Shown here: positions 2,794 through 20,928 of the stretch, piece after piece
How positions within the stretch are numbered: the stretch's first letter is position 1
How the letters are laid out: each line of letters opens with the position of its first letter
Assembly (NCBI GenBank): GCA_044373325.1
Contig: JBILQJ010000013.1
Span: 1 to 42,405, forward strand
Length of the DNA stretch: 42,405 bases
DNA from: Burkholderiales bacterium
GTDB taxonomy: Bacteria; Pseudomonadota; Gammaproteobacteria; Burkholderiales; JBILQJ01
Direction of reading: 5' to 3'
The notes under the pieces: generated by a model
What the model was told of the DNA's origin: nothing
Database searches by the model: none
The model's input: the letters and a program-made list of their open reading frames with translations, nothing else
Made by a program: the position numbers and the translations under genes

Positions 2794-3891
2794 TTATGTT
2801 GAGGTTTCTGTTCTAGCGCGCCCACGTTGCGTTGTGAGTGGTAATCGAATGCTCATGATAAGGCCGTGGGTATCGGTTCTGTTTTGAGCAACTATTGTTC
2901 CTTTGTGAGCAATCACGGCACGTTCAGAAATCGCCAACCCCAATCCAAAGCCACGAGGTTGATTGTCTACCCTGACAAAAGGTTTGAAAATGTGCTCTAA
3001 ATCTTTTTCAGGTACGCCTGGCCCTTCATCAATCACGCCAATTAAAACAAATTCACCATCTTCAGCGGATTCGAGTACGATCCAAACATTAACGGTTGTA
3101 TTCTCTTCAGAATATTTCACGGCATTTCGTATGATGTTTTCAATGGCACGGTAAAGGAGTTCTGGCTGTGCATCTAGCCATATTTCAATTTTTGGTTGTA
3201 TGAAATTGACGGCTTTGTTGTAGGATTGAGCCTCAAAATCAGCATCGTCTGCGATTTGAGCAACGCTTTCTACCAAGGCAATGCGTTCGATTTTTTGTTG
3301 TTGTAAAATGCCAGAATCTAAACGAGACAGGGTTAAGAGTTCTCCAACGAGTTCATCCAGCTGATTGGCTTCTCTTTCTATTCTCAGGATGGTTTCTTCG
3401 ATTTTGAGCGGATTTTGGCGCACGAGTCCAACGGCAGCATGCATGCGAGCTAAGGGCGAACGCAGTTCATGAGAAACATCGTGCAAGAGATTTTGTTGTG
3501 CGACCATCAATTTTTCAAGTTTTCTGACCATATTATCAAAATCATTTGAAAGGTCAGACAATTCATCTCGACGTCCTTTGAATTTGGGAGAAATTTTAAT
3601 ATTAAAATTGCCTGTGCCAATCTCTTTGAATACTTGGCGTAAATAACGAACTGGGCGAGCGATATATAATGAAAGCAAGGTGCTCACCGATAAGCTGGCC
3701 AGTAAACCGATTAACATCCAAATGCTTGGAGAAAGCGCTGCAAAATCGAGTATGGTTTCGGACGCTGGAATGCCATCAATGGGTACATCGCTTTGTTTTT
3801 GATAGAGCCAAACTACCCCAACCACCGTCAGATTGATAATCAGAGAAGTTCCTAAAAAAGCTAAAAAGATTTTCCAAAATAAACGTCCCAT
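2794..3891 (-). CDS. sensor histidine kinase (CpxA/MisS-like; two TMs, very short periplasmic loop, HAMP, HisKA, HATPase)
   Basis: 365 aa; H-box LHDVSHELRSPLARM; N and G boxes (IIRNAVKYS, DEGPGVP, GFGLGLAI); two N-terminal TM helices separated by a ~25-aa loop. Confidence 0.85.
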   Translation of the reverse strand: MGRLFWKIFLAFLGTSLIINLTVVGVVWLYQKQSDVPIDGIPASETILDFAALSPSIWMLIGLLASLSVSTLLSLYIARPVRYLRQVFKEIGTGNFNIKISPKFKGRRDELSDLSNDFDNMVRKLEKLMVAQQNLLHDVSHELRSPLARMHAAVGLVRQNPLKIEETILRIEREANQLDELVGELLTLSRLDSGILQQQKIERIALVESVAQIADDADFEAQSYNKAVNFIQPKIEIWLDAQPELLYRAIENIIRNAVKYSEENTTVNVWIVLESAEDGEFVLIGVIDEGPGVPEKDLEHIFKPFVRVDNQPRGFGLGLAISERAVIAHKGTIVAQNRTDTHGLIMSIRLPLTTQRGRARTETST

Positions 3892-4053: not shown

Positions 4054-4758
4054 TTATTGCAAACGGATTAACATATAACCAGAGCCTCGGACGGTTTGTA
4101 TCCACGAGCGGCCATCGGGTGTTTTGCCTAATTTTTGGCGTATGCTACAAATATGAACGTCAACGCTGCGATCAAAGCGAGACAATGGCCGAGATAAAGC
4201 ATCTTGAGACAATTGGGTTTTACTGACGACTTTGCCTGCTTGTCGTGCCAAGGCTTCCAATAGGCTGAATTCTGCGCCAGTTAAGTCCAAATCGTGATCT
4301 TTCCACACGGCACGGCGTTGTTCTAAATACAAAGTTAAATCGCCTTGTGTTAATTCGCTTGATTCTATGGTAACGGGCAAGTGATTTTTTGTACGGCGCA
4401 AAATGGCGCGGATGCGTGCGATGAGTTCACGAGGTACGCAAGGCTTGGTGACATAATCGTCAGCTTCGAGCTCTAGTCCGATGATGCGATCGATTTCTTC
4501 ACCGCGTGCGGTTAATAAAATCACGGGTACTGAATTTTCAGCACGGATACGACGTAAGGCTTCAATGCCGTTTAATTTGGGCATCATGACATCTAAGACC
4601 ACCAAATCAAAGTGCTTAGACAGCGCCATAGAAACACCCGCTTCACCATCATGGGCAATCGAAACTTCAAAATTTTCTTGCTCGGCATATTCTTTGAGCA
4701 TAGAAACGAGAACAACGTCATCATCAACAAAAAGTAGTTTGAGTGGGGCGCTAGACAT
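4054..4758 (-). CDS. OmpR-family response regulator (CpxR/MisR-like)
   Basis: 234 aa; receiver domain (LLFVDDD...D54...LTARGEEIDRIIGLELEADDYVTKP) plus a winged-helix domain with LTGAEFSLLEALA, SRFDRSVDVHICSIRQKL and RGSGYML, close to E. coli CpxR. Confidence 0.9.
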   Translation of the reverse strand: MSSAPLKLLFVDDDVVLVSMLKEYAEQENFEVSIAHDGEAGVSMALSKHFDLVVLDVMMPKLNGIEALRRIRAENSVPVILLTARGEEIDRIIGLELEADDYVTKPCVPRELIARIRAILRRTKNHLPVTIESSELTQGDLTLYLEQRRAVWKDHDLDLTGAEFSLLEALARQAGKVVSKTQLSQDALSRPLSRFDRSVDVHICSIRQKLGKTPDGRSWIQTVRGSGYMLIRLQ

Positions 4759-4987
4759 GATTTTTCCTTTTTAAAAATTTAAGGGTTTAAATGGGTTAAT
4801 TTACAGCTGAAAACAGCGATGAAAAGTTGCAATCACCTTGTTTTTATATCGACAAGTAATGATGATGTCCTGATTATAGCCAAATGTTAAGAATACTCCA
4901 GCTTTAATGTAAAATAATTTGATAAAAATTGTATTTGTTCTTGCTTTAGTTGAGTTGTTTTTATTTAAATCTTTGATTTTTAATCAG

Positions 4988-5037
4988 TTGTGGTCAATAT
5001 TTTTATCCGAAAATTGGGCAAAAAGGTTGGCCGCACG
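4988..5037. repeat. palindromic element copy 2 (left arm decayed)
   Basis: TTGTGGTCAATATTTTT-[atccgaaaattgggc]-AAAAAGGTTGGCCGCAC. Confidence 0.6.
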
Positions 5038-5317
5038 ATTTCTAATCGGTGAATTCTGCTGGTAGAATAAGGCTAGGGTTTCCACTTTTGGCATTACAAA
5101 AAAATGAGTTTTGTGACTAAGCGCTTAAACATCGGCGGCAGTAGCGCGTTAAAGTGGCTTATGAACTGGCTTGCTAAAATAAGGCTAGCCCAGTCATTTT
5201 TTGCTTACCAAGGCGTTGGGTTTTTTTGGTTCGCGCGATTTTTTTATCACGATATGTCGGTTTCAAGTGTAGGATAGTTTTTTACCTGCATCCGCGCATA
5301 TTAACGAGGAGACACAC

Positions 5318-6961
5318 ATGCCCGCCTATACCGATAAAACAAAGCTCAATCTTACTTATTTTCAAACCCAATCACTCAACATGCCTCAATTTAAAAAAAT
5401 GGCCTTGGCGTTTGTGGTTTTGGCTGCGACGGCCAATTTAGCGCAAGCCGCTGGCACTTTGGTGTATTGTTCGGATGCCAGCCCTGTTTTTTTTGATGGC
5501 GCGCAATCGAATTCAGGTACCGATTTTAATGCGGGTTCTCGCGCCATGTTTGATACTTTGCTGGCTTACAAGCCAGGGACTACCGAATTGATTCCGAGTT
5601 TGGCTAAAACATGGGACATTTCAGCGGATGGCAAAACCTATATTTTTCATTTGCGCGAGGGCGTAAAGTTTCACACCACCGATTATTTTAAACCCACGCG
5701 CACCTTGCAAGCCGAAGATGTGGTGTTCAGTTTTGGGCGCATGGTCAATCCGCAGCACCCCGCCAATAAAGTTTATCCTGTTGAATATCCTTATGTGGTT
5801 TCTACGGGCTTGAGGGCGAATATTGCGTCCATTAAAAAAATCGATGCCTTGACGGTTGAATTCAAATTAAAAGAAGTCGATGCGCCATTTTTGTCTAAAG
5901 TGGCGATGGCTTTTGCTGCGATACAATCGGTCGAGTACGCGCAACAATTGGCTAATGCGGGGCGGTTGTCCGATATCAATCACAAGCCAATCGGTACGGG
6001 GCCATTTGTGTTCGGCAGTTACGTCAAAGATGAGGTCATTCGTTACAACGGCAATGTTGAGTATTGGAATCCTGCGGCGATTAAATTGGATAAATTGGTC
6101 TTTGCAATTACCAAAGATGCGGCGGTGCGTTCGCAAAAGCTGACTAAAGGCGAGTGCGATTTGATTGCCAACGCCAATCCTGCGGATATTGCCGCAATGA
6201 AAGCCCATCCTGCTTTAAAAATAGAAACGGGTACTTCGCTCAACGTGGCTTATGTGGCTTACAACACTGAAAAAGCCGAGTTGAAAAATCCGCTGGTGCG
6301 GCAAGCGTTAGATCTGGTCATCGACAGGCAAGCCATTGTTGCGGCGGCTTATCAAGGCTATGCCAAATCGGCGGCCAGCTTTTATCCGCCCATTTTGTGG
6401 TCGCACAATCGCAGCCTCAAAAACGCGGCAGCCGACCTCACCAAAGCCCGTGCTTTGTTGGCCAAAGCAGGTTATCCAAATGGTTTTGAAACCGATTTAT
6501 GGGCTTTGACCAGTAATCCGATTCGCAAAATCACCGCCGAATTAATCCAAGCTGATTGGGCAAAAATTGGTGTAAAAGCGAACATTGTGACCTTTGAATG
6601 GGGCGAATTTTTAAAGCGCATCAAACAAGGCGAGCACAAAACCACGTTGATGGGTTGGACGGCGGATTATGCCGACCCCGATGGATTTGCCAGCCCTTTA
6701 TTGACCTGTAAAGCCGTTAATGGCGTGAATTTTGCACGCTATTGCGCCCCAGAATTTGAAGCATTAGTGAATAAAGCTGTAAATATCACCAACGTGGCCG
6801 AACGAACCCAGCTTTACGAACTAGCGCAAACGGTGTTTAAAGCCGATTTGCCTTGGTCGCCCATTGCCTACGCTTCGATTAATCAACCCATGCGAAAAAT
6901 GGTGCAAGGCTTTAAAGTGGGTGCTTTTGGTGAATATGATTTCCGTTATGTGAGTAAATAA
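5318..6961 (+). CDS. dppA: ABC transporter substrate-binding protein, DppA family (family 5 SBP), paralogue 1
   Basis: Signal peptide MPQFKKMALAFVVLAATANLAQA followed by AGTLVYCSDASP...; DppA-like throughout (E. coli DppA KTLVYCSEGSPEGF...). The ATG at 5318 has a strong SD (GAGGAG-6nt-ATG) but gives a 21-aa N-terminal extension; alternative ATGs at 5381 and 5399 have no SD. Confidence 0.85.
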   Translation: MPAYTDKTKLNLTYFQTQSLNMPQFKKMALAFVVLAATANLAQAAGTLVYCSDASPVFFDGAQSNSGTDFNAGSRAMFDTLLAYKPGTTELIPSLAKTWDISADGKTYIFHLREGVKFHTTDYFKPTRTLQAEDVVFSFGRMVNPQHPANKVYPVEYPYVVSTGLRANIASIKKIDALTVEFKLKEVDAPFLSKVAMAFAAIQSVEYAQQLANAGRLSDINHKPIGTGPFVFGSYVKDEVIRYNGNVEYWNPAAIKLDKLVFAITKDAAVRSQKLTKGECDLIANANPADIAAMKAHPALKIETGTSLNVAYVAYNTEKAELKNPLVRQALDLVIDRQAIVAAAYQGYAKSAASFYPPILWSHNRSLKNAAADLTKARALLAKAGYPNGFETDLWALTSNPIRKITAELIQADWAKIGVKANIVTFEWGEFLKRIKQGEHKTTLMGWTADYADPDGFASPLLTCKAVNGVNFARYCAPEFEALVNKAVNITNVAERTQLYELAQTVFKADLPWSPIAYASINQPMRKMVQGFKVGAFGEYDFRYVSK

Positions 6962-6985
6962 CCCTGTCTTTTTTATGACTAACCC

Positions 6986-7033
6986 TTGCGGCCAACCTTT
7001 TTCTGAAAAATCAGGGAAAAAGGTTGGCCGCAA
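6986..7033. repeat. palindromic element copy 3
   Basis: TTGCGGCCAACCTTTTTCTGAAAAATCAGGGAAAAAGGTTGGCCGCAAG, preceded by the shared 20-bp flank CTTTTTTATGACTAACCCTTG (6968-6988). Confidence 0.95.
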
Positions 7034-7145
7034 GAGTTCTCAACATTAATAAACAAGACAAAACCGCTTTCATTGCGCTAAAATGGCGCGTTTTAAGCGA
7101 CAATGTGTCATTTTGCACCATCAACCCTCATTTTTGAAAGTTTTT

Positions 7146-8531
7146 ATGAACGAACTCTTGAGCAAATTCATTCCGATTATTTTCGCTATTTTATTCCTCA
7201 GCTTGATTGTTTATGTCGCGGTGTTGATTTTTAAACTGCGCCGAGTGGTGCCAACCAATGAAGTGCACATTATCCAATCGAGCAAAACCACCATGTCGTA
7301 CGGCAAAGACACCGAAAACGGCAACACCTATTATGAGTGGCCATCTTGGATGCCAAAAATCGGTTTGACCAAAATCATTTTGCCCGTCAGCGTGTTTGAT
7401 TTGGACTTGCAAGACTACGAAGCTTATGACAAAGGGCGCTTGCCGTTTGTTGTGGATGTGAAGTCCTTCTTTCGCATACACGACTCCAACCTTGCGGCGC
7501 AACGCGTGGCCTCATTTGACGACTTAAAAAGCCAACTTAAAGCCATTGTACAAGGCGCGGTGCGCACCATTTTGGCCTCCAACGAAATTGAAGCCATCAT
7601 GCAAGGGCGATCGGAGTTTGGCGAAGCATTTACCTCCGAAGTCAGAGAGCAGCTCACCAATTGGGGCGTGGTTCCTGTCAAAAACATTGAATTAATGGAC
7701 ATTCGCGACGCGACGGACAGTCAAGTGATACACAACATCATGGAAAAGAAAAAATCCCTGATTGAAATGCAAAGCCGCTCAGAAGTGGCCGAAAATATGA
7801 AAACCGCCAAAGTCGCCGAAATCAACGCCAAGCGTGAAACCGAAGTTCAGGAACAAGACGCCATCCAAAAAGTGGGCGAGCGCAAAGCCGAAACCGACAA
7901 AGCGGTTGGGATTGCCAATGAAAAATCCACTCAAGAAATTGCCGAACAAGTCAAAATCACCAAAGAACGCCAAATGGAAGTGGTGAAAGTGACTGAAGTC
8001 AAGCAAGCCGAAATCACCAAAGAAGTGCAATTGGTCAAGGCCGAACAAGACAAGCAAACCAGCATTATTAACGCCGAAGCGGCCAAGCAAAAACTCATGA
8101 TTGTGGCGGAGGGCGAAAAGCAAAAAACCGTTTTGGATGCGGAAGGGTTGCTCGAGTCCAAACAACGTGAATCGCAAGGGATTGCGCTGGAAGGTCAAGC
8201 TCGCGCAGATGCAGAAAAAGCCATGCAATTGGCGCCCGTTCAAGCGCAAATCGTGTTGGCCAACGAAATTGGTAGCAACGACAAATATCAGCAGTATTTG
8301 TTGGCGGTTGAACAAATTAAAGCCAATCAAGTTGTGGGTGTCGAACAAGCGCGTGCGCTTGAGAAAGCCGACATTAAAATTATTGCCAACACCGGCGATG
8401 TCAGCTCTGGCATCAGCAATTTGGGCGATGTTTTGAGCTCAAAAGGCGGTACGTCATTGGCGGCAATGCTTGAAGGTTTGTCGCAAACCGACGCTGGCAA
8501 AGCATTGGTGAATAAAATTTCGGGGAAGTAA
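7146..8531 (+). CDS. flotillin/SPFH (band 7) domain protein, YqiK/FloT-like
   Basis: N-terminal TM helix (FIPIIFAILFLSLIVYVAVLIF), an SPFH core, then a long E/A/K/Q-rich coiled coil (flotillin tail). The start is taken at the internal ATG (MNELLSKF); the track ORF begins 21 codons earlier. Confidence 0.8.
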   Translation: MNELLSKFIPIIFAILFLSLIVYVAVLIFKLRRVVPTNEVHIIQSSKTTMSYGKDTENGNTYYEWPSWMPKIGLTKIILPVSVFDLDLQDYEAYDKGRLPFVVDVKSFFRIHDSNLAAQRVASFDDLKSQLKAIVQGAVRTILASNEIEAIMQGRSEFGEAFTSEVREQLTNWGVVPVKNIELMDIRDATDSQVIHNIMEKKKSLIEMQSRSEVAENMKTAKVAEINAKRETEVQEQDAIQKVGERKAETDKAVGIANEKSTQEIAEQVKITKERQMEVVKVTEVKQAEITKEVQLVKAEQDKQTSIINAEAAKQKLMIVAEGEKQKTVLDAEGLLESKQRESQGIALEGQARADAEKAMQLAPVQAQIVLANEIGSNDKYQQYLLAVEQIKANQVVGVEQARALEKADIKIIANTGDVSSGISNLGDVLSSKGGTSLAAMLEGLSQTDAGKALVNKISGK

Positions 8532-8584
8532 TCGGTTTTTATCACACGTTTGAATCTGAGTGAGCTTTGTTTTTTTATGACTAA

Positions 8585-8638
8585 CCCTTGTGGCCAACCT
8601 TTTTCTGAAAAATCAGGGGAAAAGGTTGGCCGCAAGGG
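8585..8638. repeat. palindromic element copy 4
   Basis: CCCTTGTGGCCAACCTTTTTCTGAAAAATCAGGGGAAAAGGTTGGCCGCAAGGG, with the same 20-bp 5' flank (8571-8590) as copy 3. Confidence 0.95.
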
Positions 8639-8725
8639 TTTTGTGTTGTTGGCGTTTAAACTGCGTTAGAATAGTGGTTTTTTCTAGCGCTAAAAACAAG
8701 GGCTAGTCAACACAGGCGATGAACC

Positions 8726-10405
8726 ATGATTTCTTTTTTCAAACGCCATAAAGCGAGTCACGCATTTTCGACCCGCTTGCCTCCCAAACCCGCCACTTTT
8801 TTGAACACACACGCCCCACTGCTTTTCTTTGCGTTGGTGTTTACGGTTTTTTTTAATGTCACTTTTTTTAAGAAATTGCTGGCGCTGTACGCTTTGCCCC
8901 AAAATTTAGGCTTTGTGATTTCGGTGACTTTGTGCCTTTTTTTTGTGCATGCTTTGTTGTTGGGGCTGGTGTGTTGGGGGCGAGCGCGGCAATGGCTGCT
9001 GGCTGGATTGATTGTTGTTGGTGGTTTTTCTGCGTATTACATGGACAATTTTCGGGTGGTCATTGATCAAATTATGTTGGTGAATGCCGTGCAAACCAAT
9101 CCTGCTGAGGCGGCCGATTTGTTGACGTGGCGCTTGTTGCTGTATGTGGTTTTTTTGGTGATTTTGCCCATCATTTTGTTGATAAAAACCCCTTGGCCAC
9201 GCGCCACTTTTGTGCGGGGTTTAAAACACAGGCTGGTGTATTTGTTGTTGTGTTTATTGGGTTTTGTGTTGGGCGTGTTGCCCGCGTATTCGCATTATCC
9301 CAGCTTTTTACGCCAGCATAAAATGGTGCGTTTTTATTCGAATCCAATCACGCCGATTTATTCGGCGGTGCAATTTGCCCGTCATCTGATACCCAAAGCA
9401 ACCGTGATTGCGCGGGTGTTAGATCACAACCCTAAAGCGGATCAAAATGAGGGGCATCGTGAGTTGGTGATTTTGGTGCTGGGCGAAACGGCACGCGCCG
9501 ATCGATTCTCGCTCAATGGCTACAAGCGATACACCAATCCCTTGTTGTCGAATGAAGCCAACGTGATTAGCTTGCCCAATCTCAGTTCTTGCGGCACCAG
9601 CACGGCGGTTTCTGTGCCGTGTATGTTTTCGGCTTTGCCGCGCGAGTCCTTTTCTGATGAAGCCTTTAAAGCCGAAGAAAATGTCATAGACGTGTTGGCA
9701 CGAGCTGGCGTTAACGTGTTGTGGCGGGATAACAATTCGGACAGTAAAGGTGTGATGAGTCGTTTTACGATAGAAAATTACAAAGAACCCGCACTGAATT
9801 CGGTTTGTGACGTGGAATGTCGCGATGAAGGGATGTTGGTGGGTTTGCAAAAGTACATCGATTCGCACCCTAAAGGCGATATTTTGATTGTGTTGCACGC
9901 CATGGGCAGCCACGGGCCTGCTTATAGTAAACGTTATCCCAAAGCCTTTGAACAGTTTAAGCCTGCTTGCGACACGGTACAGATTGAACAATGCGACAAA
10001 GCGTCCATTGACAACGCTTATGACAACACGATTTTATACACCGATTATTTTTTGAGTGAAACCATTGCTTTGCTCAAGGCAAATTCGCCTAAATTTGAAG
10101 CGTCTATGATATACATGAGCGATCATGGCGAATCTTTGGGCGAAAATGGCTTGTATTTACACGGCTTGCCGTATGCGTTAGCACCCCAAGAACAAAAAAA
10201 TCCTGCGGCTTTAGTGTGGTTTAGCGACGGCGCTTTGGCAGACAACACCGAAGCAAAAAAATTTGAGACCTTAAAAAAACAAGCCTCGCATCCGTATACT
10301 CACGATAATTTATTTCACAGTTTGTTGGGCTTGTTTGAAGTGCAAACCAGCGTTTATCGCCCAGAGTTAGACGTCTTTGACGCGCGTAGCAGCGCCGCGC
10401 CTTAA
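8726..10405 (+). CDS. eptA: phosphoethanolamine--lipid A transferase (EptA/LptA/MCR family)
   Basis: 559 aa; five N-terminal TM helices plus a periplasmic sulfatase-type domain. Motifs align almost residue-for-residue with MCR-1 and Neisseria LptA: VLGETARADRFSLNGY, CGTSTAVSVPCMFS, WRDNNSDSKGVM, HAMGSHGPAYSKRYP, YMSDHGESLGENGLYLHG. Confidence 0.92.
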   Translation: MISFFKRHKASHAFSTRLPPKPATFLNTHAPLLFFALVFTVFFNVTFFKKLLALYALPQNLGFVISVTLCLFFVHALLLGLVCWGRARQWLLAGLIVVGGFSAYYMDNFRVVIDQIMLVNAVQTNPAEAADLLTWRLLLYVVFLVILPIILLIKTPWPRATFVRGLKHRLVYLLLCLLGFVLGVLPAYSHYPSFLRQHKMVRFYSNPITPIYSAVQFARHLIPKATVIARVLDHNPKADQNEGHRELVILVLGETARADRFSLNGYKRYTNPLLSNEANVISLPNLSSCGTSTAVSVPCMFSALPRESFSDEAFKAEENVIDVLARAGVNVLWRDNNSDSKGVMSRFTIENYKEPALNSVCDVECRDEGMLVGLQKYIDSHPKGDILIVLHAMGSHGPAYSKRYPKAFEQFKPACDTVQIEQCDKASIDNAYDNTILYTDYFLSETIALLKANSPKFEASMIYMSDHGESLGENGLYLHGLPYALAPQEQKNPAALVWFSDGALADNTEAKKFETLKKQASHPYTHDNLFHSLLGLFEVQTSVYRPELDVFDARSSAAP

Positions 10406-10431: not shown

Positions 10432-10493
10432 TTGCGGCCAACCTTTTTATCTTGATTTTCATGACGAAAAACAGGAAAAAAGGTTGGCCGCAA
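10432..10493. repeat. palindromic element copy 5 (33-nt loop)
   Basis: TTGCGGCCAACCTTTTTAT-[cttgattttcatgacgaaaaacagg]-AAAAAAGGTTGGCCGCAA. Confidence 0.9.
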
Positions 10494-10709: not shown

Positions 10710-12308
10710 ATGCAAATCAGCGTCAAAAAACTGGCAACTGTTTTGAGTGTTTTGGTTTTGGCCACTTCGGCGCACTGGGCGATCGCCGACAAAGGCACTT
10801 TTGTGTATTGTTCGGAAGGCAGCCCTGCTGGGTTCGATTCTTCGCAATATACATCGGGTATTGATTTTAATGCAGGCGCTTACGCCCTATTTGATAAATT
10901 GGTGGCGTACAAACCCGGCACTTCAGAAATCATACCCAGCTTGGCCGAAAGTTGGGACGTGTCGCCCGATGGAAAAACATACACGTTTCATTTGCGCCCC
11001 AATGTCCAGTTTCATAGCACCGATTATTTTAAACCCACGCGCAATTTTCAGGCTGAAGATGTGTTATTTACCTTTGGGCGCATGATTAAAAAAGATCACC
11101 CATCTAACCGCTTGTACCCAGCCGAATACCCCAACGCGGTGGATATGGGTTTGACGCGCAACATCGTTTCCATCAAAAAAATAGATAATTTGACCGTTGA
11201 ATTTAAGCTGCAAAAAGTCGATGCGCCGTTTTTGAAAAAAATCGCAGTGCCCTTTGCGATGATACATTCGGCGGAATACGCGCAACAATTGGCCAACCGT
11301 GGGCAATTGGCTCAACTCAACCAAAAACCCATAGGCACAGGGCCGTTTATTTTTAGTAGTTACGCTAAAGATGAGGCCATTCGTTATCTTGGCAATAAAA
11401 ACTATTGGGACGCTGACGCGGTGAAAATTGATAAATTGGTTTTTTCTATCGTGCCTGATGCTGCTGTGCGCTATCAAAAAATGAAAAAAGGTGAATGCGA
11501 TTTAATCGGCACGCCCAACTTTACCGACATTGATGCCATGCGGAAAGAGCCTGATTTTAAAGTACAAGATGCCACGGGCGTGAATATCGGTTATTTGGCC
11601 TATAATACCGAAAAACCAGAAACCAAAAAACTGGCGGTACGTCAAGCCTTGGACATGGCCATCAATCGCCAAGCTTTGGTTGAAGCAGCGTATGGCAATC
11701 AAGGGGTTGTGGCCATTAACCCGTATCCAGCCGCTTTGTGGTCGCACAATACCAGCGTAAAAAATGCACCTTTTAATGTCGAAAAAGCCAAAGCTTTGTT
11801 GGCTCAAGCAGGCTATCCCAATGGTTTTGAAACCGACCTTTGGACGACGACGCACGACAAATCTTGGCGCAGAATGGCCGAAATGATACAAGCCGATTGG
11901 GCAAAAATTGGCGTTAAAGCCAACATCGTCAGCTACGAAACGGCGGAGTTTTTAAAGCGCATTAGCTTGGGCGAATACACGACGACTTTGTCTTCTTGGG
12001 GCGGTGGCTATGCCGATCCTGACCATTTTTTAGGCACGTTGTTGACCTGTCGTGCAGTGGGTGGTTCGAATGTGGCGCGTTATTGTTCTGCCGAATACGA
12101 TGCCTTGGTCGAAAAAGCGGTGACTCTGACCAATCAAACCGAGCGAAGCAAACTTTACGAACAAGCGCAAGTCCTTTTAAAACGCGATTTGCCATGGACA
12201 ACCTTGACGCACACCGCACGTAACCAGCCTATGCGCAAGTCGGTGCAAGGCTACAACGTCAGCCCTTCAGGTTCTCGAGATTTTCGTTACGTGAGTAAAT
12301 CGGAATAA
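10710..12308 (+). CDS. dppA: DppA-family substrate-binding protein, paralogue 2
   Basis: 532 aa; signal peptide MQISVKKLATVLSVLVLATSAHWAIA; SD AAGGAGAAG; paralogous to 5318..6961 along its whole length. Confidence 0.9.
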   Translation: MQISVKKLATVLSVLVLATSAHWAIADKGTFVYCSEGSPAGFDSSQYTSGIDFNAGAYALFDKLVAYKPGTSEIIPSLAESWDVSPDGKTYTFHLRPNVQFHSTDYFKPTRNFQAEDVLFTFGRMIKKDHPSNRLYPAEYPNAVDMGLTRNIVSIKKIDNLTVEFKLQKVDAPFLKKIAVPFAMIHSAEYAQQLANRGQLAQLNQKPIGTGPFIFSSYAKDEAIRYLGNKNYWDADAVKIDKLVFSIVPDAAVRYQKMKKGECDLIGTPNFTDIDAMRKEPDFKVQDATGVNIGYLAYNTEKPETKKLAVRQALDMAINRQALVEAAYGNQGVVAINPYPAALWSHNTSVKNAPFNVEKAKALLAQAGYPNGFETDLWTTTHDKSWRRMAEMIQADWAKIGVKANIVSYETAEFLKRISLGEYTTTLSSWGGGYADPDHFLGTLLTCRAVGGSNVARYCSAEYDALVEKAVTLTNQTERSKLYEQAQVLLKRDLPWTTLTHTARNQPMRKSVQGYNVSPSGSRDFRYVSKSE

Positions 12309-12312: not shown

Positions 12313-12362
12313 TTGCGGCCAACCTTTTTTAAGCCATTTCTCTGTTAAAAGGTTGGCCGCAA
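12313..12362. repeat. palindromic element copy 6
   Basis: TTGCGGCCAACCTTTTTTAAGCCATTTCTCTGTTAAAAGGTTGGCCGCAA, 5 bp after the dppA2 stop. Confidence 0.95.
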
Positions 12363-12532: not shown

Positions 12533-14146
12533 ATGAACGTTCAATTCAAAAAAATAGCAGTTGCCTTAAGCGTATTGGGCGCGTTGGGCGCGACCAGTTC
12601 GGCCATCGCAGCCGGAACTTTAGTTTATTGTTCTGATGCAAGTCCTGCTGGATTTGACGTGGCGCAGTTTACTGCTGGCACCGATTTCGACGCGGGCGCA
12701 CGCACCATGTTTGACAGCTTGTTGGCCTACAAACCGGGCACAACAGAAATGATTCCTGCTTTGGCCGAAAAATGGACGATTTCCGAAGATGGCAAAACGT
12801 ACACGTTTCAGTTGCGTACTGGCGTGAAGTTTCACACGACCGATTACTTTACGCCGACTCGTGATTTGCAAGCCGAAGATGTCATTTTTACCTTTGGGCG
12901 CATGATTAAAAAAGATCACCCGTCTAACCAAGCCTATCCTGCACAGTTTCCGTATGCAGGTTCTTTGGGCTTGGACAGCAACATTCTTTCGATTAAAAAA
13001 ATCGACAACTTAACGGTTGAATTTAAATTAAAAGAAGTTGATGCGCCATTTTTGGCCAAAATTGCCATGGATTTTGCGTCCATTCAATCGGTTGAATACG
13101 CACAAAAACTGGCGAATGCCGGGCGATTGGCCGAAATTAATCAAAAACCCATCGGCACGGGGCCTTTTGTGTTTAGCAGTTACACCAAAGACGAAACCAT
13201 CCGTTACACCGCCAATCCCAATTATTGGAATAAAGCAGCGGTTCAGTTGGATAAGTTGATTTTTTCAATCAACAAAGAAGCCTCTGTGCGCTATCAAAAG
13301 CTGAAAAAAGGCGAGTGTGATATTTTGGCTTATCCCAACCCCAGTGACGTGGCTGAAATGAAAAAAGATGCCACTTTGAAGGTGGACAGCGCGCCGGGCT
13401 TTAGCGTGGGTTATGTGGCTTACAACACTCAAAAAGCCGAAATGCAAAAACGAGAAGTACGACAAGCGTTAGACATGGCCATTAATCGTAAAGCCATCGT
13501 CGAGGCGGTGTATCAAGGTCAAGGCCAAGAAGCGACTAACCCTTTTCCACCTTCTTTGTGGTCGTACAATACCACGCTCAAAAATGCGCCTGTTGATATC
13601 ACGAAAGCCAAAGCTTTATTGGCCAAAGCAGGTTATCCAAATGGCTTTGAAACCGAGCTTTGGGCGATGCCAGTGCAACGCGCTTACAATCCCAACGCCA
13701 AATTAATGGCCGAAATGATACAAGCCGACTGGGCAAAGATAGGCGTTAAAACCAAAATCGTGAGCTTTGAATGGGGCGAATATTTGAAGCGCGCTCGCAA
13801 GGGCGAACACACAGCGGGGTTATTTGGCTGGTTGGGCGATTTTGCTGACCCAGATAATTTTTTGGGCGTGTTATTGACTTGTAAGTCAGTAGGCGGCCCG
13901 AATTATGCGCAATATTGTTCGCCAGAATTTGATGCCTTAGTCAATAAAGCCGCCCGCACCACCGACGTGGCCGAGCGGACAAAATTGTACGAAGAAGCGC
14001 AGGTGATTTTCAAACGCGATTTGCCGTGGACTACCATCGCCCATTCGACGGTTAATCAACCCATGCGCAAAGAAGTGATGGGCTTTAAAATCAGCCCTTT
14101 TGGTAATTATGACTTCCGTTATGTGAGTAAATCCGCCAGCAACTAA
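12533..14146 (+). CDS. dppA: DppA-family substrate-binding protein, paralogue 3
   Basis: 537 aa; signal peptide then AAGTLVYCSDASPAGFD; closest to paralogue 4 (shared IKKDHPSN, QGQGQEA, NPNAKLMAEMIQADWAKIGVKTKIV). Confidence 0.9.
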   Translation: MNVQFKKIAVALSVLGALGATSSAIAAGTLVYCSDASPAGFDVAQFTAGTDFDAGARTMFDSLLAYKPGTTEMIPALAEKWTISEDGKTYTFQLRTGVKFHTTDYFTPTRDLQAEDVIFTFGRMIKKDHPSNQAYPAQFPYAGSLGLDSNILSIKKIDNLTVEFKLKEVDAPFLAKIAMDFASIQSVEYAQKLANAGRLAEINQKPIGTGPFVFSSYTKDETIRYTANPNYWNKAAVQLDKLIFSINKEASVRYQKLKKGECDILAYPNPSDVAEMKKDATLKVDSAPGFSVGYVAYNTQKAEMQKREVRQALDMAINRKAIVEAVYQGQGQEATNPFPPSLWSYNTTLKNAPVDITKAKALLAKAGYPNGFETELWAMPVQRAYNPNAKLMAEMIQADWAKIGVKTKIVSFEWGEYLKRARKGEHTAGLFGWLGDFADPDNFLGVLLTCKSVGGPNYAQYCSPEFDALVNKAARTTDVAERTKLYEEAQVIFKRDLPWTTIAHSTVNQPMRKEVMGFKISPFGNYDFRYVSKSASN

Positions 14147-16198: not shown

Positions 16199-17227
16199 AT
16201 GTTTGCTTTTGCTTTTCGGCGTTTGTTTACGCTCATTCCAACGTTTTTTGGCATTACACTGTTGTCGTTTGTGTTGATTCATTCCATACCGGGAGACCCT
16301 GTTGAGGTCATGATGGGTGAAAAAACGGTTGACCCTGTGTTGCACGCACAAGCCTTAAAACGCTTGGGGCTGGATTTGCCTTTGCCCGAACAATATTGGA
16401 ATTACCTCAAACAGTTGGCTCATGGCGACTTAGGCACGTCTTTTCGCACGCAAAATCCTGTTTGGGCAGATTTTAAAATTGCCTTTACAGCCACGGCTGA
16501 ATTGGCGATTTTTGCGTTGACTTTGGCGGTTGTGTTGGGCTTGATTTTGGGGGTGACGGCGGCGGTTAAACGCGGTTCTATTTTTGATCATGGCGTGATG
16601 ACCTTGGCGCTCACAGGTTACTCTATGCCCATTTTTTGGTGGGGCTTGATGGCCATGATGTTTTTCTCGGTTTATTTGGGCTGGTTGCCTGTGTCTGGGC
16701 GTTTGGATTTGATGTTTGACATTCCGCGCGTGACGGGTTTTATGTTAATCGACAGTTTTTTGGCCGAAAACGCGCACCCATTAGAAAATAAAGGCGCATT
16801 TAAAGATGCGGTGATGCATTTGATTTTACCTGCCATTGTGTTGGGCACGAACTCTTTGGCCATTATTGCGCGCATGACGCGTTCGGCCATGTTGGAAGTG
16901 TTAAAAGAAGATTACATCCGAACCGCTAAAGCCAAAGGCTTGTCGCCGCTGCGCGTGATTTTTGTCCACGCTTTGCGCAACGCCTTAATCCCTGTGATTA
17001 CGATTATTGGTTTGCAATTGGGTGGCATTTTTAGTGGCGCTGTGTTGACTGAAACCATTTTTTCTTGGCCTGGTATCGGTACGTGGTTGGTGAACGCCAT
17101 TGGGCAACGTGATTATCCCATCGTACAAAGTGGCATTTTGATTATTGCGACTCTGGTGATATTGACCAATTTCATGGTGGATTTGTTGTACGGTGTTGTT
17201 AGCCCTCGCATTCGTCATGAAAAATAA
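16199..17227 (+). CDS. dppB: dipeptide ABC transporter permease DppB
   Basis: 342 aa; ~60% identical by eye to E. coli DppB (IPTFFGITLLSF, RGSIFDH, GYSMPIFWWG, EDYIRTAKAKGL, SWPGIG, LLYGVVSPRIRH). Confidence 0.93.
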   Translation: MFAFAFRRLFTLIPTFFGITLLSFVLIHSIPGDPVEVMMGEKTVDPVLHAQALKRLGLDLPLPEQYWNYLKQLAHGDLGTSFRTQNPVWADFKIAFTATAELAIFALTLAVVLGLILGVTAAVKRGSIFDHGVMTLALTGYSMPIFWWGLMAMMFFSVYLGWLPVSGRLDLMFDIPRVTGFMLIDSFLAENAHPLENKGAFKDAVMHLILPAIVLGTNSLAIIARMTRSAMLEVLKEDYIRTAKAKGLSPLRVIFVHALRNALIPVITIIGLQLGGIFSGAVLTETIFSWPGIGTWLVNAIGQRDYPIVQSGILIIATLVILTNFMVDLLYGVVSPRIRHEK

Positions 17228-17239
17228 AGGATATTTTAA

Positions 17240-18187
17240 ATGAATCAAACGGTTAAATTAGAAAGCTCTCCCAACACCACCAACCAAGTTGACACGACTG
17301 CCCCCGATTTTGTGCCGACACATCCTTCACCACTGCGTGAATTTTGGGCGACTTTTAGTCAAAACAAAGGCGCGGTCATCGGCTTGTGTTTGTTTGCGGT
17401 TTTGTTGTTTTGCGCCATATTTGCGCCCATTCTTGCGCCGCACGACCCCATCGAACAATACCGCGATTTTATGTTGACCCCGCCAAGCTGGACAGAAGGT
17501 GGCAATCCGCAATTTTTATTAGGGACAGATGAAGTGGGGCGCGATATTTTGTCGCGTCTGATGCACGGGGCGCAATTGTCTATGGGTGTGGGATTTATTT
17601 CTGTCATTCTTTCCATGATACCGGGCATTATTTTAGGTTTGGTTGCGGCGTTTTTTCCTAAATACATAGGCGCATTCATCATGCGCGTGGTTGACATTAC
17701 GATGGCATTCCCCTTTTTGTTGTTGGCGATTGTGATTGTAATTGTGCTGTCACCGTCTTTGGCGACCACTGTGGTGGCCGTGTCTATCGTGAATTTGCCC
17801 GCCTATGTGCGCATGATGCGCGCTGAAGCCATGAGCCAAATGAATCGCGATTACGTGATGGCCAGTCGCGTGTCGGGCGCTGGGTTGTTGCGCATTATGT
17901 TTGTGTCGGTGTTGCCCAATTGTATGGCACCGTTGATTGTGCAAGGCACGATGGGCTTTTCTTCGGCCATTTTAGAAATTGCGGCTTTGGGCTTTTTGGG
18001 CATGGGCATACAACCGCCAGCGGCAGAATGGGGCACCATGTTGTCCAGCGCGCGCGATTACATCAGCAGCGCTTGGTGGGTGGTGACTTTCCCAGGGATT
18101 ACCATTTTAATTTCGGTTTTGTCGATTAATTTGATGGGAGATGGCTTGCGTGATGCGCTAGACCCTAAAATGAAAAAAATAGGTTAA
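17240..18187 (+). CDS. dppC: dipeptide ABC transporter permease DppC
   Basis: 315 aa; LREFWATFSQNKGAV, LGTDEVGRDILSRLMHGA, NRDYVMASRVSGAG and WWVVTFPG match E. coli DppC. Confidence 0.93.
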   Translation: MNQTVKLESSPNTTNQVDTTAPDFVPTHPSPLREFWATFSQNKGAVIGLCLFAVLLFCAIFAPILAPHDPIEQYRDFMLTPPSWTEGGNPQFLLGTDEVGRDILSRLMHGAQLSMGVGFISVILSMIPGIILGLVAAFFPKYIGAFIMRVVDITMAFPFLLLAIVIVIVLSPSLATTVVAVSIVNLPAYVRMMRAEAMSQMNRDYVMASRVSGAGLLRIMFVSVLPNCMAPLIVQGTMGFSSAILEIAALGFLGMGIQPPAAEWGTMLSSARDYISSAWWVVTFPGITILISVLSINLMGDGLRDALDPKMKKIG

Positions 18188-18260
18188 GGCCAGCAGCCTT
18201 TAAAGTTGATTTTCAGACACAAGGTTGGCCGCAAGCGTATTGCCTGCTGCGGCCAACCTT
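18188..18260. repeat. composite palindromic element (1.5 copies) between dppC and dppD
   Basis: Decayed left arm AAGGCCAGCAGCCTTT, then spacer, then AAGGTTGGCCGCAAGC-[gtattgcct]-GCTGCGGCCAACCTT. The last two arms form a tight hairpin in the inverted configuration. Confidence 0.8.
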
Positions 18261-18304
18261 GAACGGGTTTCGATACTGAACGATTTGGATATTTGGAGTG
18301 GCGC

Positions 18305-19291
18305 ATGAGTTTATTAAATATAAAGAACCTTTCGGTTCAGTTTGGGTCAAAAAGCAACCCTTTTAAAGCCGTTGATGGCTTAGATTTGAGCGTGGCGCAA
18401 GGCGAAGTGGTTGGGATAGTCGGGGAATCGGGTTCGGGTAAATCGGTGACCATGATGGCCATGATGGGCTTGCTCGATGGGCAAGGCCGCATTTTGGCTG
18501 ATGAAATGCGGTTTGATGGCAAAGATTTGCAAGCACTAAGCGCCAAAGAACGCCGCAAAATCATGGGCAAAGACATTGCCATGATTTTTCAAGATCCCAT
18601 GACCAGTTTAAACCCCAGTTTTACGGTGGGCTATCAAATTGAAGAAGTCTTGAAATTGCATCAAGGTTTGCGCGGAGCGGCTTTAAAAAAACGCTTGTTA
18701 GAATTGATGAATCAAGTGGAAATTCCAGCGCCCGAATCGCGTTTGTCGGCGTATCCGCATCAATTGTCGGGCGGCATGAGCCAGCGGGTGGCCATCGCCA
18801 TGGCCATTGCGTGCCAACCTAAATTATTGATAGCGGACGAGCCAACCACGGCTTTGGACGTGACGATACAAGCCCAAATCATGAGCTTGTTGGTGAATTT
18901 GCAAAAAGAAAACAACATGAGTTTAATTATGATTACTCATGATTTGGCGGTGGTGGCCGAAGTGGCGCAGCGCTTGGTGGTCATGTATGCAGGGCAACAA
19001 GTCGAAATGGGCAACGTGCCTGATATTTTCCGCAAGCCCGCCCATCCTTATACCGAAGCTTTGTTGGCTTCTATTCCCGAACGCAGCAAAGGGGCGCACC
19101 GCTTAAGCACCTTGCCGGGCATTGTGCCGGGGTTGTACGACAGACCAAAAGGTTGTTTGTTGTCACCCCGTTGTCCGCACGTACAAGCCCAATGCCACGA
19201 AAAAGTGCCAGCTTTTGAATCATATGGACAAAGTTCGGCGCGGTGTTTTTATCCTTTGAATCTTGATGTTAATCAGAAAGTGAGCGCCTAA
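18305..19291 (+). CDS. dppD: dipeptide ABC transporter ATP-binding protein DppD
   Basis: Start moved to MSLLNIKNL (SD GGAG, 6 nt before the ATG). Walker A GESGSGKS, signature LSGGMSQRV, and the oligopeptide C-terminal domain. Confidence 0.92.
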
Positions 19292-19292
19292 T

Positions 19293-20261
19293 ATGCCCCA
19301 TCCAACGTTAGTCATGGAAGTGGAGAATCTGGCTCGCCATTATGAGATTTCTACGGGCTGGTTTAAACCCAAAGCAACGGTTAAAGCGTTAAATGGCGTT
19401 TCTTTTAAGTTGGCCGCAGGCAAAACTTTGGCGGTGGTGGGCGAATCGGGTTGCGGTAAATCGACCTTGGCGCGTCAACTCACGCTCATCGAATCGCCTT
19501 CGTCAGGCAGCATAGTGCTAGACGGCGTGCCCGTCAACACCGCTACGGCGGCAGAAATCAAAGCCATGCGCAGCAAAGTACAAATGGTATTTCAAAATCC
19601 TTACGGTTCTTTGAATCCACGCCAAAAAATCGGCGATCAATTGGCTGAACCTTTGTTGATGAACACGCCTTTGACTGCGCCAGAAAGAAAAGCGCGCGTG
19701 TTGGAGATGATGAAAATTGTTGGCCTGCGTGCCGAGCATTATCATCGCTATCCGCATATGTTTTCGGGCGGTCAACGTCAACGCATCGCCATTGCGCGCG
19801 CCATGATGTTGCACCCTAAAATTGTGATTGCGGACGAACCGACCAGTGCGCTGGACGTTTCCATACAAGCGCAAGTGTTGAATCTTTTCATGGATTTGCA
19901 GCAAGAATTAAAAACGGCGTATGTTTTTATTTCGCACAATTTATCGGTGGTTGAACACGTGGCCGATGAGGTGATGGTGATGTATTTGGGGCAAGTGGTT
20001 GAAATGGCGACTAAAACCGATTTGTTCGCAAACCCCAAACACCCGTACACAAAAGTGTTGTTGTCGGCGACGCCTTCTTTGTTTGAAGAAGATCGCAAAA
20101 TCAACATCGCCATCAAGGGCGAATTGCCCAGCCCATTGAATCCGCCGTCGGGTTGCGCGTTTCACAAACGTTGCCCTTACGCCGTGGCGCGTTGCCAAAC
20201 TGAAACGCCCGTCTTGCGCGAATTAGACGGGCATCAAGTCGCTTGTTTCGAGGCAAAATAA
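19293..20261 (+). CDS. dppF: dipeptide ABC transporter ATP-binding protein DppF
   Basis: 322 aa; GESGCGKST, FSGGQRQRIAIARA and YVFISHNLSVVEHVADEVMVMYLG are near-identical to E. coli DppF. The ATG lies 1 nt after the dppD stop. Confidence 0.93.
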   Translation: MPHPTLVMEVENLARHYEISTGWFKPKATVKALNGVSFKLAAGKTLAVVGESGCGKSTLARQLTLIESPSSGSIVLDGVPVNTATAAEIKAMRSKVQMVFQNPYGSLNPRQKIGDQLAEPLLMNTPLTAPERKARVLEMMKIVGLRAEHYHRYPHMFSGGQRQRIAIARAMMLHPKIVIADEPTSALDVSIQAQVLNLFMDLQQELKTAYVFISHNLSVVEHVADEVMVMYLGQVVEMATKTDLFANPKHPYTKVLLSATPSLFEEDRKINIAIKGELPSPLNPPSGCAFHKRCPYAVARCQTETPVLRELDGHQVACFEAK

Positions 20262-20290: not shown

Positions 20291-20340
20291 TTGCGGCCAA
20301 CCTTTTTCCCTATTTTTTGGGGTAAAAGGTTGGCCGCAAG
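20291..20340. repeat. palindromic element copy 10
   Basis: TTGCGGCCAACCTTTTTCCCTATTTTTTGGGGTAAAAGGTTGGCCGCAAG. Confidence 0.95.
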
Positions 20341-20370: not shown

Positions 20371-20928
20371 TTATGGTGCGGTGTTTTTCTTGACTTCTAC
20401 CGCTTTGATTTTGTAAGAAGAAAGCCCTGTTCCCGTGGCCACTTGGGTGCTGCTTTTTTCTACTGTCATTTGGCCAGATACCCAAACCGTGTCCATGGCG
20501 TTGAGGTCTTTGATGGGTGTGGCGGCGGTGACGTAAATGATTTGATTTGATGGTGGTGGCGGTGTGTGGATGCAGGCGCCATAAAAAGGCACTAACAAAA
20601 ATTGCGTGACGTCTTTGCCTTTAAATTCGACAGGCACAACATAACCCGAAATTTTAAGGGCTTTGCCATTGAGCTCGGGGTTGATGGGCGCGTTAGACCA
20701 AGCTTTTTTCAAGTCGTCTAAAGCAGCTTGGGCGCGTGGGTCGTTGTCTTTCATGGTGGAATAATCAATGTCTTTGAACGCTTTGGTTGGGTCCCAATCT
20801 TTGGGCATTAATTTATCCCAATTGACAACGGGGTAAGTCGGTGCGGCATAAATGGGTGAACTCACCGCGCCTAGCGTGAGGCAAAGGAGTCCGACTAAAA
20901 AAAAATAAGAGCGAGAAAAGTAACTCAT
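20371..20928 (-). CDS. DUF3299-family secreted/lipoprotein
   Basis: 185 aa; signal peptide MSYFSRSYFFLVGLLCLTLGAVSSPIYA; the FYGACIHTPPPPSNQ motif characteristic of DUF3299; SD AAGGA. Confidence 0.7.
   Translation of the reverse strand: MSYFSRSYFFLVGLLCLTLGAVSSPIYAAPTYPVVNWDKLMPKDWDPTKAFKDIDYSTMKDNDPRAQAALDDLKKAWSNAPINPELNGKALKISGYVVPVEFKGKDVTQFLLVPFYGACIHTPPPPSNQIIYVTAATPIKDLNAMDTVWVSGQMTVEKSSTQVATGTGLSSYKIKAVEVKKNTAP

Follow-up and report, generated by a model that had tools for sequence, protein, structure and literature searches.

The minimal mobile elements (MMEs) of the neisseriae are defined by conserved flanking genes, differing whole-gene content, and homologous recombination (PMC3082526), and Frye et al. 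described an inverted-pair, terminator-associated organization for all dialects of the DNA uptake sequence (DUS) in the Neisseriaceae (PMC3630211). Here, we describe a locus that resembles both systems in some aspects. It lies on contig JBILQJ010000013.1 of a Burkholderiales bacterium (assembly GCA_044373325.1), an entire metagenome contig of 42,405 bp that was analyzed over its full length and is termed the window in the following. In this window, an array of genes for DppA-like proteins encloses two other genes: flot, which encodes a flotillin-like SPFH protein of 461 aa (7146..8531, plus strand, in a reading frame open from 7083), and eptA, which encodes a predicted lipid A phosphoethanolamine (pEtN) transferase of 559 aa (8726..10405, plus strand). 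The first gene of the array, dppA1, lies on one side of the two genes and dppA2-4/dppBCDF lie on the other, as an earlier note on this DNA had rightly described. We consider it probable that flot and eptA are two unrelated, independently transcribed envelope genes in a core-chromosome dppA array, with eptA being resident and flot being a cassette that varies by recombination at palindromes.

The key evidence came from a comparison of the window with related contigs of the same uncultured lineage (L001, L003-L011, L092-L094, and L189), all of which are short metagenomic contigs; L189 is a contig of the metagenome-assembled genome (MAG) GCA_964927985.1 at NCBI. The flot gene is present in six contigs that represent three haplotypes (the window, L009-L011, L094, and L189), with flot being identical to that of the window in L009-L011 and sharing 94.6% and 96.1% of its nucleotides in L094 and L189, respectively. 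It is absent from seven contigs with two junction types (L003-L008 and L092), in which dppA1 is directly followed by eptA. The eptA genes of L005-L008 and L092 share about 95-96% nucleotide identity with the window, and L003/L004 belong to a lineage whose EptA is 91% identical at the amino-acid level. In BLAST alignments, the contigs without flot match the window up to position 7034 or 7038 and resume at 8571 or 8588, and the breaks thus lie exactly at repeats. The variable segment comprises 1,602 bp (7039..8640, plus strand) and includes the flot promoter region, flot, 38 nt, and the second copy of a 70-nt direct repeat. Copy 1 of this repeat (6969..7038, plus strand) consists of the 17-nt flank L (TTTTTTATGACTAACCC) and the palindrome 6986-7034, which forms a terminator-like hairpin after dppA1. 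Copy 2 (8571..8640, plus strand) consists of flank L and the palindrome 8588-8636, which is the terminator-like hairpin of flot and is followed by a U-rich tract. The two copies are 96% identical and differ at 3 positions. The metagenome contigs of this lineage often break inside palindromes: L001 starts at window position 8608, and L010, L011, and L189 end within the hairpin that follows flot. As assembly is limited by the palindromic repeat, the frequencies of the two states cannot be read from contig counts alone.

Four junction types can be distinguished. Type I (L094 and L189, flot present) has the order dppA1-X-P1-flot-L'-P2-eptA, with two palindromes that differ in loop and flank, and type II (L003/L004, flot absent) has the order dppA1-X-P1-eptA. 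Type III is found in the window (flot present; dppA1-L-P-flot-L-P-eptA), and type IV in L005-L008 and L092 (flot absent; dppA1-L-P-eptA). The 17-nt flank L has its homolog in the sequence that natively follows flot in L094 and L189. The type IV contigs therefore keep a scar of the 3' end of flot, which argues for a deletion. For the copy of L that follows dppA1 in the flot-containing window, the most plausible explanation would be that flot was re-inserted into a locus similar to type IV or that such a locus served as the donor in a conversion. The type IV contigs L005-L008 have a single, chimeric repeat: of the three diagnostic positions, the first two agree with copy 1, and the third agrees with copy 2, as does the right flank. 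L189 and L003, with and without flot, respectively, have the X-P1 junction in common and are 97% identical in dppA1. At least two independent recombination events at palindromes are required to generate these arrangements.

The flanking genes are themselves mosaic. L094 is nearest to the group without flot in the 3' part of dppA1 (95.7% versus 93.0% to the window) and in the 3' part of eptA (98.2%), and it is nearest to the window in the 5' part of eptA (97.7%); the window, in turn, is nearest to L005 in the 5' part of dppA2 (98.7%). As these segment-wise identities are incongruent, the locus is a recombination mosaic, and in this point the earlier description as a repeat-punctuated mosaic was confirmed. 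The presence/absence polymorphism of flot is as such a known kind of event.

The palindromes at 6986-7034, 8588-8636, and 10432-10493 form very stable hairpins (-39 to -43 kcal/mol; z values from -6.6 to -8.8). In detail, the hairpin after dppA1 has -39.4 kcal/mol (z -8.8), that after flot has -42.8 kcal/mol, and the terminator-like hairpin after eptA (10432..10493, plus strand) has -40.3 kcal/mol (z -7.6). As their loops exceed 8 nt, they are not called by a simple terminator scan, and folding was used instead. No Rfam family reached its gathering score across the whole window. The palindromes belong to a much larger set. A 13-mer core, AAGGTTGGCCGCA, occurs in 37 copies in the 42 kb when one mismatch is allowed, compared to 0.17 expected copies, and the alignment of all copies revealed a conserved 16-nt motif, AAAAGGTTGGCCGCAA, with unconserved flanks and a density of about 0.9 per kb. 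The copies form 14 inverted pairs with inner gaps of 7-34 nt, which are found after nearly every gene or operon (for example at 2717-2765, 12313-12362, 20291-20339, 24037-24085, 29851-29899, 31438-31486, and 38456-38488); nine copies are singles, four of which are intragenic. The earlier note had seen flot and eptA as delimited by palindromic copies. These palindromes do exist, but they are not specific to the two genes, and as they follow nearly all genes, the delimitation of flot and eptA says nothing about insertion.

Flot was assigned by domain search, hydropathy analysis, and Foldseek. It scored 53.1 bits with the Band_7/SPFH domain PF01145 (cutoff 23.6), in agreement with the initial assignment as an SPFH gene, and phmmer matched it to QmcA and stomatin. 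The hydropathy profile indicates a single N-terminal transmembrane (TM) helix at residues 11-29, and the region from residue 216 to 400 consists to 58% of E, K, A, Q, R, and D. From an AlphaFold2 model, we used only the secondary-structure layout and the Foldseek ranking, not the geometry. In this low-confidence model, the TM helix is accompanied by an SPFH region of the alpha/beta type and by a pair of helices with about 90 residues each (192-278 and 286-376). In the Foldseek search against the PDB, the flotillin-1/2 complexes 9L3G and 9BQ2 ranked at the top, with E values of about 1e-7 over the full length (424-448 columns) at TM-scores of only 0.22-0.26. Stomatin, QmcA, HflK/C, and prohibitin cages followed at lower ranks, and the SPFH domains reached TMt values of 0.7-0.8. 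Flot is not a FloT equivalog, as it scored 22.3 bits with the model NF058507 (cutoff 700). A gene for an NfeD partner was found neither beside flot, whose neighbors are dppA1 and eptA, nor beside the homologs with 72-73% identity. Flot thus falls into a known superfamily, for which "flotillin-like SPFH scaffold" is a fair label in its case.

The nearest relatives of Flot outside its own lineage have 73% identity, and the homologs have 457-472 aa. The genes of the homologs with 72-73% identity are solitary among unrelated housekeeping genes, such as in the order bamB-der-flot-bamD in a Methylotenera MAG, and none of them adjoins eptA. Flot belongs to a separate and widespread family of about 465 aa that is encoded by solitary genes, and as its homologs elsewhere never adjoin eptA, the adjacency in the window looks incidental. 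A promoter-like site, AAGACA-18-TAAAAT, precedes flot at 7055..7084 on the plus strand, with the -10 element TAAAAT at 7079-7084. Because this -10 element overlaps the upstream ATG at 7083, position 7146 is the likely start, and both the length of the homologs and the NCBI annotation of flot in L189, also with 461 aa, agree with it. The composition of flot is unremarkable, with a GC content at third codon positions (GC3) of 0.554 and a codon distance of 0.131. No defense system was assigned to Flot or EptA by PADLOC. The regions upstream of flot (7066-7095) and eptA (8655-8700) have a -10-like motif, GCG(C/T)TA(A/G)AAT, in common, with similar surroundings. As a shared regulatory motif, GCGYTARAAT was rejected: it has 3 matches versus 0.79 expected, and 3 matches were reached in 6 of 100 shuffles, which is not significant.

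EptA was identified by Pfam, NCBIfam, and motif alignment. It contains the domains PF08019 (EptA_B_N; 139 bits, cutoff 22.3) and PF00884 (Sulfatase; 201 bits, cutoff 25), and it passes the NCBIfam model NF028537 for phosphoethanolamine--lipid A transferases with 609.7 bits (cutoff 500), so that its family assignment by the earlier note stands. It fails the model for E. coli-type EptA equivalogs, NF008619 (472.5 bits, cutoff 660), and it remains below all MCR family models of NCBIfam (313-401 bits, cutoffs 1075-1250), including those for MCR-1, MCR-2, and MCR-6 (NF000465, NF012159, and NF033670), with which it scored 398.8, 401.1, and 396.3 bits at cutoffs of 1100, 1200, and 1235. Hydropathy peaks indicate about five TM helices, which are followed by a periplasmic sulfatase-fold domain. 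The motifs GETARAD, SCGTSTA, SHGPAY, SDHGES, and LHG align with MCR-1 and with Neisseria meningitidis EptA (NmEptA), and Glu254, Thr293, His396, Asp466, His467, and His479 align with the corresponding residues of both proteins. In MCR-1, we take E246, T285, H395, D465, H466, and H478 to be the catalytic threonine and the zinc ligands. Six periplasmic cysteines are also conserved.

In a search of solved structures, full-length MCR-1 (9NWW) was the best match with 395 bits, and Neisseria EptA (5FGN) reached 311 bits. In HMMER alignments, the identity to MCR-1 was 43% overall and 50% within the aligned catalytic region, and that to NmEptA was 35%; a trimmed multiple alignment gave 39.6% to MCR-1.1 and 34.1% to NmEptA; the identity to MCR-3, -4, -5, -8, and -9 is 33-37%. 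The sequence had previously been described as very close to MCR-1/LptA in its catalytic-domain motifs. This holds for the family-wide catalytic motifs, which are conserved, but not for the proteins as a whole, for which the identity is only 39.6-43% with MCR-1 and 34-35% with Neisseria EptA. The nearest proteins are metagenomic, with 97%, 91%, and 70% identity, and the next ones, from Ephemeroptericola, Hydromonas, and Formosimonas, have at most 54%. We calculated a neighbor-joining (NJ) tree with 200 bootstraps that included MCR-1.1, -3.1, -4.3, -5.1, -8.2, and -9.1, a Klebsiella EptA, and a Pseudoalteromonas plasmid gene (all from PLSDB), as well as NmEptA, and no Moraxella sequences. In this tree, EptA joins its 91% and 70% metagenomic relatives (100% support) within a betaproteobacterial environmental clade that contains Ephemeroptericola, Hydromonas, and Formosimonas (90%). 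The larger environmental group joins MCR-1 (98%), apart from the branches of MCR-3/4/8/9, Klebsiella EptA, and Neisseria EptA. By these comparisons, MCR-1 is the nearest MCR to EptA, at a distance that is typical of unrelated chromosomal EptAs. Among 1,796 matching plasmid records in PLSDB, none had 60% or more identity to EptA, and the best had 42.9%.

The Moraxella origin of mcr-1 is established. As the host of the window is betaproteobacterial, this origin is no relevant context here. The best matches of RpoA have 81-82% identity and come from Chromobacterium, Aquitalea, and Aquaspirillum. GlyA has many metagenomic matches of 96-100%, followed by Iodobacter, Silvimonas, Aquitalea, Chromobacterium, and Methylophilaceae at 83-84%. 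By these markers, the host is an uncultured betaproteobacterium and not Moraxella. The Moraxella framing thus does not apply, and the reading of eptA as part of an MCR reservoir is not supported. The NJ tree, with MCR and Neisseria proteins from the phylogeny proposed as a check, put EptA into the betaproteobacterial environmental clade. A search with EptA in genome contigs, as far as species representatives were reached, gave no relative, as the lineage is not among them, and the relatives found with RpoA all have at most 82% identity and carry no dpp, flot, or eptA downstream of rplQ. The DppA1 search of metagenome contigs gave relatives of at most 54% identity, which were used solely as a negative control for the dppA-eptA adjacency. 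Neither eptA nor flot was found nearby in 80 rpoA loci of other Betaproteobacteria or in 80 distant dppA loci. In this sense, the view that the co-localization of a flotillin gene and eptA is unusual was supported by the distant dppA loci (0/80) as well as by the contexts of flotillin homologs, none of which shows it among those examined.

The position of eptA is constant within the lineage. It lies between dppA1 (or flot) and dppA2 in all 12 contigs that reach the site (the window, L001, L003-L009, and L092-L094), and these contigs span about 85-100% nucleotide identity. Its GC content of 0.466, its GC3 of 0.530, and its synonymous-codon distance of 0.081 are typical of the window, for which the means are 0.486+/-0.081 for GC3 and 0.116+/-0.038 for the codon distance. 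Compositional foreignness of flot or eptA was therefore rejected, as GC3 and codon usage of both are unremarkable for the window. Domain scans found no insertion sequence, transposase, integrase, or plasmid genes in the 42-kb window, which contains housekeeping genes throughout. The suggestion of an accessory insertion thus has to be divided: eptA is fixed (12/12), flot alone is accessory, and even flot shows no sign of a mobile-element insertion. The comparison of locus occupancy, which the earlier note had named as a check, essentially gave conserved synteny for eptA. We conclude that eptA is a new, divergent member of a known family in a context that is ordinary at the population level, and that, by all sequence criteria applied, it is neither mobilized nor an MCR-family gene.

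The variation of flot could also be an artefact, if the assembly of short-read metagenomes had collapsed or mis-joined sequences at the 70-nt repeat. The breaks at palindromes in L001, L010, L011, and L189 would agree with this, but the contigs without flot come from at least seven independent samples and have two junction sequences, and type II lacks any 70-nt repeat that could collapse. Moreover, the flanking genes of the haplotypes without flot diverge by 4-8% from those of the window. These haplotypes therefore represent different strains and not collapsed copies of the window, and an artefact is scarcely credible. Hardly more credit can be given to a dedicated mechanism, be it a transposon, an element similar to miniature inverted-repeat transposable elements (MITEs), or a site-specific cassette system with the palindromes as its recombination sites. 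The flanking of the window segment by 70-nt direct repeats that contain inverted repeats could be taken as a sign of such a mechanism, as could the presence of xerD in the window (26041-26943). No transposase or integrase is encoded in or beside the segment, however, and the palindromes on the two sides of flot in L094 and L189 are unlike each other in loop and flank, which leaves no fixed element ends. They also differ among the flot-containing haplotypes L094, L189, and the window. The breakpoints of junction types II and IV differ, the flanking genes are themselves mosaic, and as the motif follows most genes, has variable loops, and also occurs in single copies, it is not a discrete element. 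It is also very unlikely, and largely refuted, that eptA, together with flot, is a recent accessory insertion and a chromosomal progenitor of the MCR type that belongs to the reservoir behind mobile colistin resistance. The interruption of a tandem paralog array by eptA, its different position in contig L002 with an adjoining PAP2 gene as in the case of mcr-1, and the grouping of the environmental clade with MCR-1 in the NJ tree (98%) could suggest this origin. Against it stand the identity of only about 40% to MCR-1, scores that amount to one third of the MCR cutoffs, the lack of plasmid relatives with at least 60% identity, the native GC3 and codon usage, the lack of mobility genes nearby, the fixation of eptA at its site across contigs of about 85-100% identity, and a host that is not Moraxella.

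The observations that weigh against our interpretation of two unrelated genes with a resident eptA are best considered together with the alternative to which several of them lead. The two genes lie on the same strand, are only 195 nt apart, and both encode envelope proteins, and a CpxRA-like envelope-stress system is encoded 2.3 kb upstream. An enrichment of EptC by a factor of 2.3, together with SPFH proteins, has been reported for detergent-resistant membranes of E. coli (PMC6788730), and the MisRS two-component system of Neisseria, which affects phosphoethanolamine decoration and the sensitivity to cationic antimicrobial peptides, offers a precedent (PMC3526765). Flot and EptA could thus form a functional module, in which a cage microdomain recruits or stabilizes EptA, and perhaps Dpp, so that strains with flot would have an enhanced or regulated lipid A modification. 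The linkage of flot to the 5' half of eptA, as seen in the window and L094 (97.7% identity), would be in line with such a module. We nevertheless regard it as improbable, because eptA persists without flot, and is intact, in seven contigs and because hairpins separate the genes; between flot and eptA, there is a strong hairpin as well as a separate promoter-like region. In addition, homologs of EptA are encoded beside other genes in L002 and on plasmids, flot homologs of other taxa do not lie beside eptA, and a full-text literature search gave no report of a flotillin-EptA partnership. Further points concern residency and the assigned functions. The 70% relative of EptA (L002) is encoded elsewhere, in a PAP2-eptA-astA context, and the position of eptA is therefore not conserved deeper in the tree. 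Thus, eptA must have entered the dpp array at some time in the past of the lineage, and it is now fixed there. The term "all relatives" stands for 12 short metagenomic contigs of roughly four haplotype groups, and such contigs leave room for a second copy of eptA or flot elsewhere in the genome. The AlphaFold2 model of Flot, which was based on a 32-sequence alignment, is of low confidence (pLDDT 61, pTM 0.30). The pEtN activity of EptA and lipid A as its acceptor are assigned by homology, and the acceptor could be another molecule.

With these points in mind, two unrelated genes in a core-chromosome array remain the probable interpretation, from which the following picture would emerge. The eptA gene would be resident and vertically inherited, with an intrinsic housekeeping function. 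By homology, EptA would be an inner-membrane enzyme in which the zinc-activated Thr293 takes phosphoethanolamine from phosphatidylethanolamine and passes it to a lipid A phosphate; pEtN on lipid A would lower the negative surface charge and raise the tolerance to cationic peptides and polymyxin. Flot, likewise by homology, would be a membrane-anchored SPFH scaffold that forms large oligomeric cages. In this population, its gene would be dispensable and, together with its promoter and its own terminator-like hairpin, would make up a single-gene cassette of 1.6 kb. Homologous recombination between the palindromic, terminator-like repeats on both sides would add or remove this cassette as a whole. 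The palindromes would be copies of the genome-wide 16-nt motif and not insertion scars. Separate transcription units can be assumed, as flot is preceded by a promoter-like site and dppA1, flot, and eptA are each followed by a stable hairpin.

The 16-nt motif is the most interesting by-product of this analysis and goes beyond the original finding. To our knowledge, AAAAGGTTGGCCGCAA is unlike the DUS dialects of the Neisseriaceae and the uptake signal sequence (USS) of the Pasteurellaceae. It is conceivable, although we hold this only tentatively, that it is a hitherto undescribed DNA uptake sequence and that the uncultured betaproteobacterial lineage, which lies outside the Neisseriaceae known to bear a DUS, is naturally competent. 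The inverted pairs would then act as terminators and at the same time offer portable anchors of homology, by which single-gene cassettes of the flot type would be deleted and re-inserted in an MME-like manner, which would give rise to the four junction types. A role of the motif that is similar to repetitive extragenic palindromic (REP) elements, with a pure function in termination or mRNA stability, is equally possible. A less likely addition would be that the flot cassette modulates an EptA-dependent envelope remodeling, so that its gain and loss would tune the tolerance to cationic peptides.

The remaining genes of the window are as follows. As identified from open reading frames and domain scans, the 5' region contains rpsD-rpoA-rplQ, a tautomerase-like gene, and, on the minus strand, genes for a histidine kinase and a response regulator, followed by dppA1, flot, eptA, dppA2, dppA3, dppA4, and dppBCDF. 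The 3' region continues with eno, waaC, kdsA, xerD, hemF, fabF, mlaE, apt, glyA, rluC, rne, maf, and a gene for a PglL/Wzy_C-like ligase. On the plus strand, dppA1 (5318..6961), the first of four DppA-like substrate-binding paralogs, scored 324.6 bits with SBP_bac_5 and 516.8 bits with the DppA model, and dppA2 (10710-12308), dppA3 (12533-14146), and dppA4 (14410-15999) are each followed by a palindrome pair. The permeases and ATPases of the peptide ABC transporter, dppB, dppC, dppD, and dppF, are encoded at 16199..20261 (plus strand). The four tandem paralogs upstream of one dppBCDF share 60-81% nucleotide identity over the repeat families, and all of them scored higher with the DppA model than with the SapA model. 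As each paralog has its own hairpin, several peptide specificities may feed one transporter. The ligase-like gene at 39167-41257 codes for a membrane protein of 696 aa that contains Wzy_C, Wzy_C_2, and PglL_A domains and resembles O-antigen ligases or protein O-glycosylation ligases of the Neisseria PglL type. Three poorly characterized genes lie on the minus strand among the housekeeping genes (20371-20928, 24108-24950, and 31520-32482); they encode a DUF3299 protein, a BPSS1780-family membrane protein, and a 320-aa protein without family match.

The two-component system was analyzed by Pfam and NCBIfam. The sensor histidine kinase (2794..3891, minus strand, 365 aa, HAMP-HisKA-HATPase_c) is most similar to CpxA, and the OmpR-family response regulator (4054..4758, minus strand) to CpxR. 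The kinase has nearly no periplasmic domain, as HAMP begins at residue 72, and the system is divergent from dppA1 across a 560-nt AT-rich spacer; it adjoins dppA1 also in L005 and L094. The kinase reached 247 and 225 bits with CpxA models (under the cutoffs) and 118 bits with PmrB, and the regulator reached 234.6 bits with CpxR (cutoff 341) and 151 bits with PmrA. An identity as PmrAB was therefore rejected, with CpxA/CpxR scores being about twice the PmrB/PmrA scores and all of them being under the cutoffs. This CpxRA-like system may be a MisRS-like envelope regulator, and we only infer its link to eptA. In L002 (positions 4076-6477 of that contig), eptA lies directly downstream of a PAP2-family phosphatase gene, which recalls mcr-1-pap2 on plasmid NZ_CP027257.1 (L101).

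For the surveillance of resistance, these results remove a false lead, as the gene would be a divergent resident eptA of an environmental betaproteobacterium with no sign of mobilization. The locus also offers a clean natural case in which a single housekeeping-type gene, here for a flotillin, appears to be gained and lost via recombination at genome-wide hairpin repeats, and it raises the possibility that an uncultured lineage carries a motif of the uptake-sequence type.

In comparison with known systems, EptA resembles the EptA/LptA enzymes, such as N. meningitidis EptA (5FGN) and the EptA/PmrC proteins of E. coli and Klebsiella, in its EptA_B_N membrane domain and its sulfatase-fold periplasmic domain. 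The nucleophilic threonine and the zinc-binding Glu, Asp, and His residues are conserved, and the gene is likewise chromosomal and monocistronic. In contrast, it is only 34-36% identical to NmEptA and Klebsiella EptA, and whereas Klebsiella eptA adjoins pmrAB, the eptA of the window sits in a dppA array near a CpxRA-like system. With MCR-1 (PDB 9NWW and 5GRR), EptA shares the six periplasmic cysteines at the same alignment positions. Unlike mcr-1, however, the gene is chromosomal and has no ISApl1, plasmid, or pap2 context, and its host is a betaproteobacterium and neither Moraxella nor an enterobacterium. Flot has the N-terminal anchor, the SPFH domain, and, as predicted, the long coiled-coil helices of flotillin-1/2 (9BQ2, 9L3G), FloT/YqiK, QmcA (8Z5G), and HflK/C (7WI3), but it is only 17-18% identical to eukaryotic flotillins, and no NfeD partner adjoins it, unlike in the QmcA-YbbJ and YqiK-YqiJ pairs. 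As in the DUS and USS systems, AAAAGGTTGGCCGCAA is strongly over-represented and occurs mostly in inverted pairs with variable loops downstream of genes, together with single and intragenic copies, whereas the window contains no competence genes. With the neisserial MMEs, the locus shares the conserved flanks, here dppA1 and eptA, the present or absent flot, the mosaic structure, and the lack of mobility genes. It differs from them in that only presence and absence, but no alternative cassettes, were seen, in that the breakpoints lie in short palindromic repeats and not in the flanking genes alone, and in that its host is apparently outside the Neisseriaceae.

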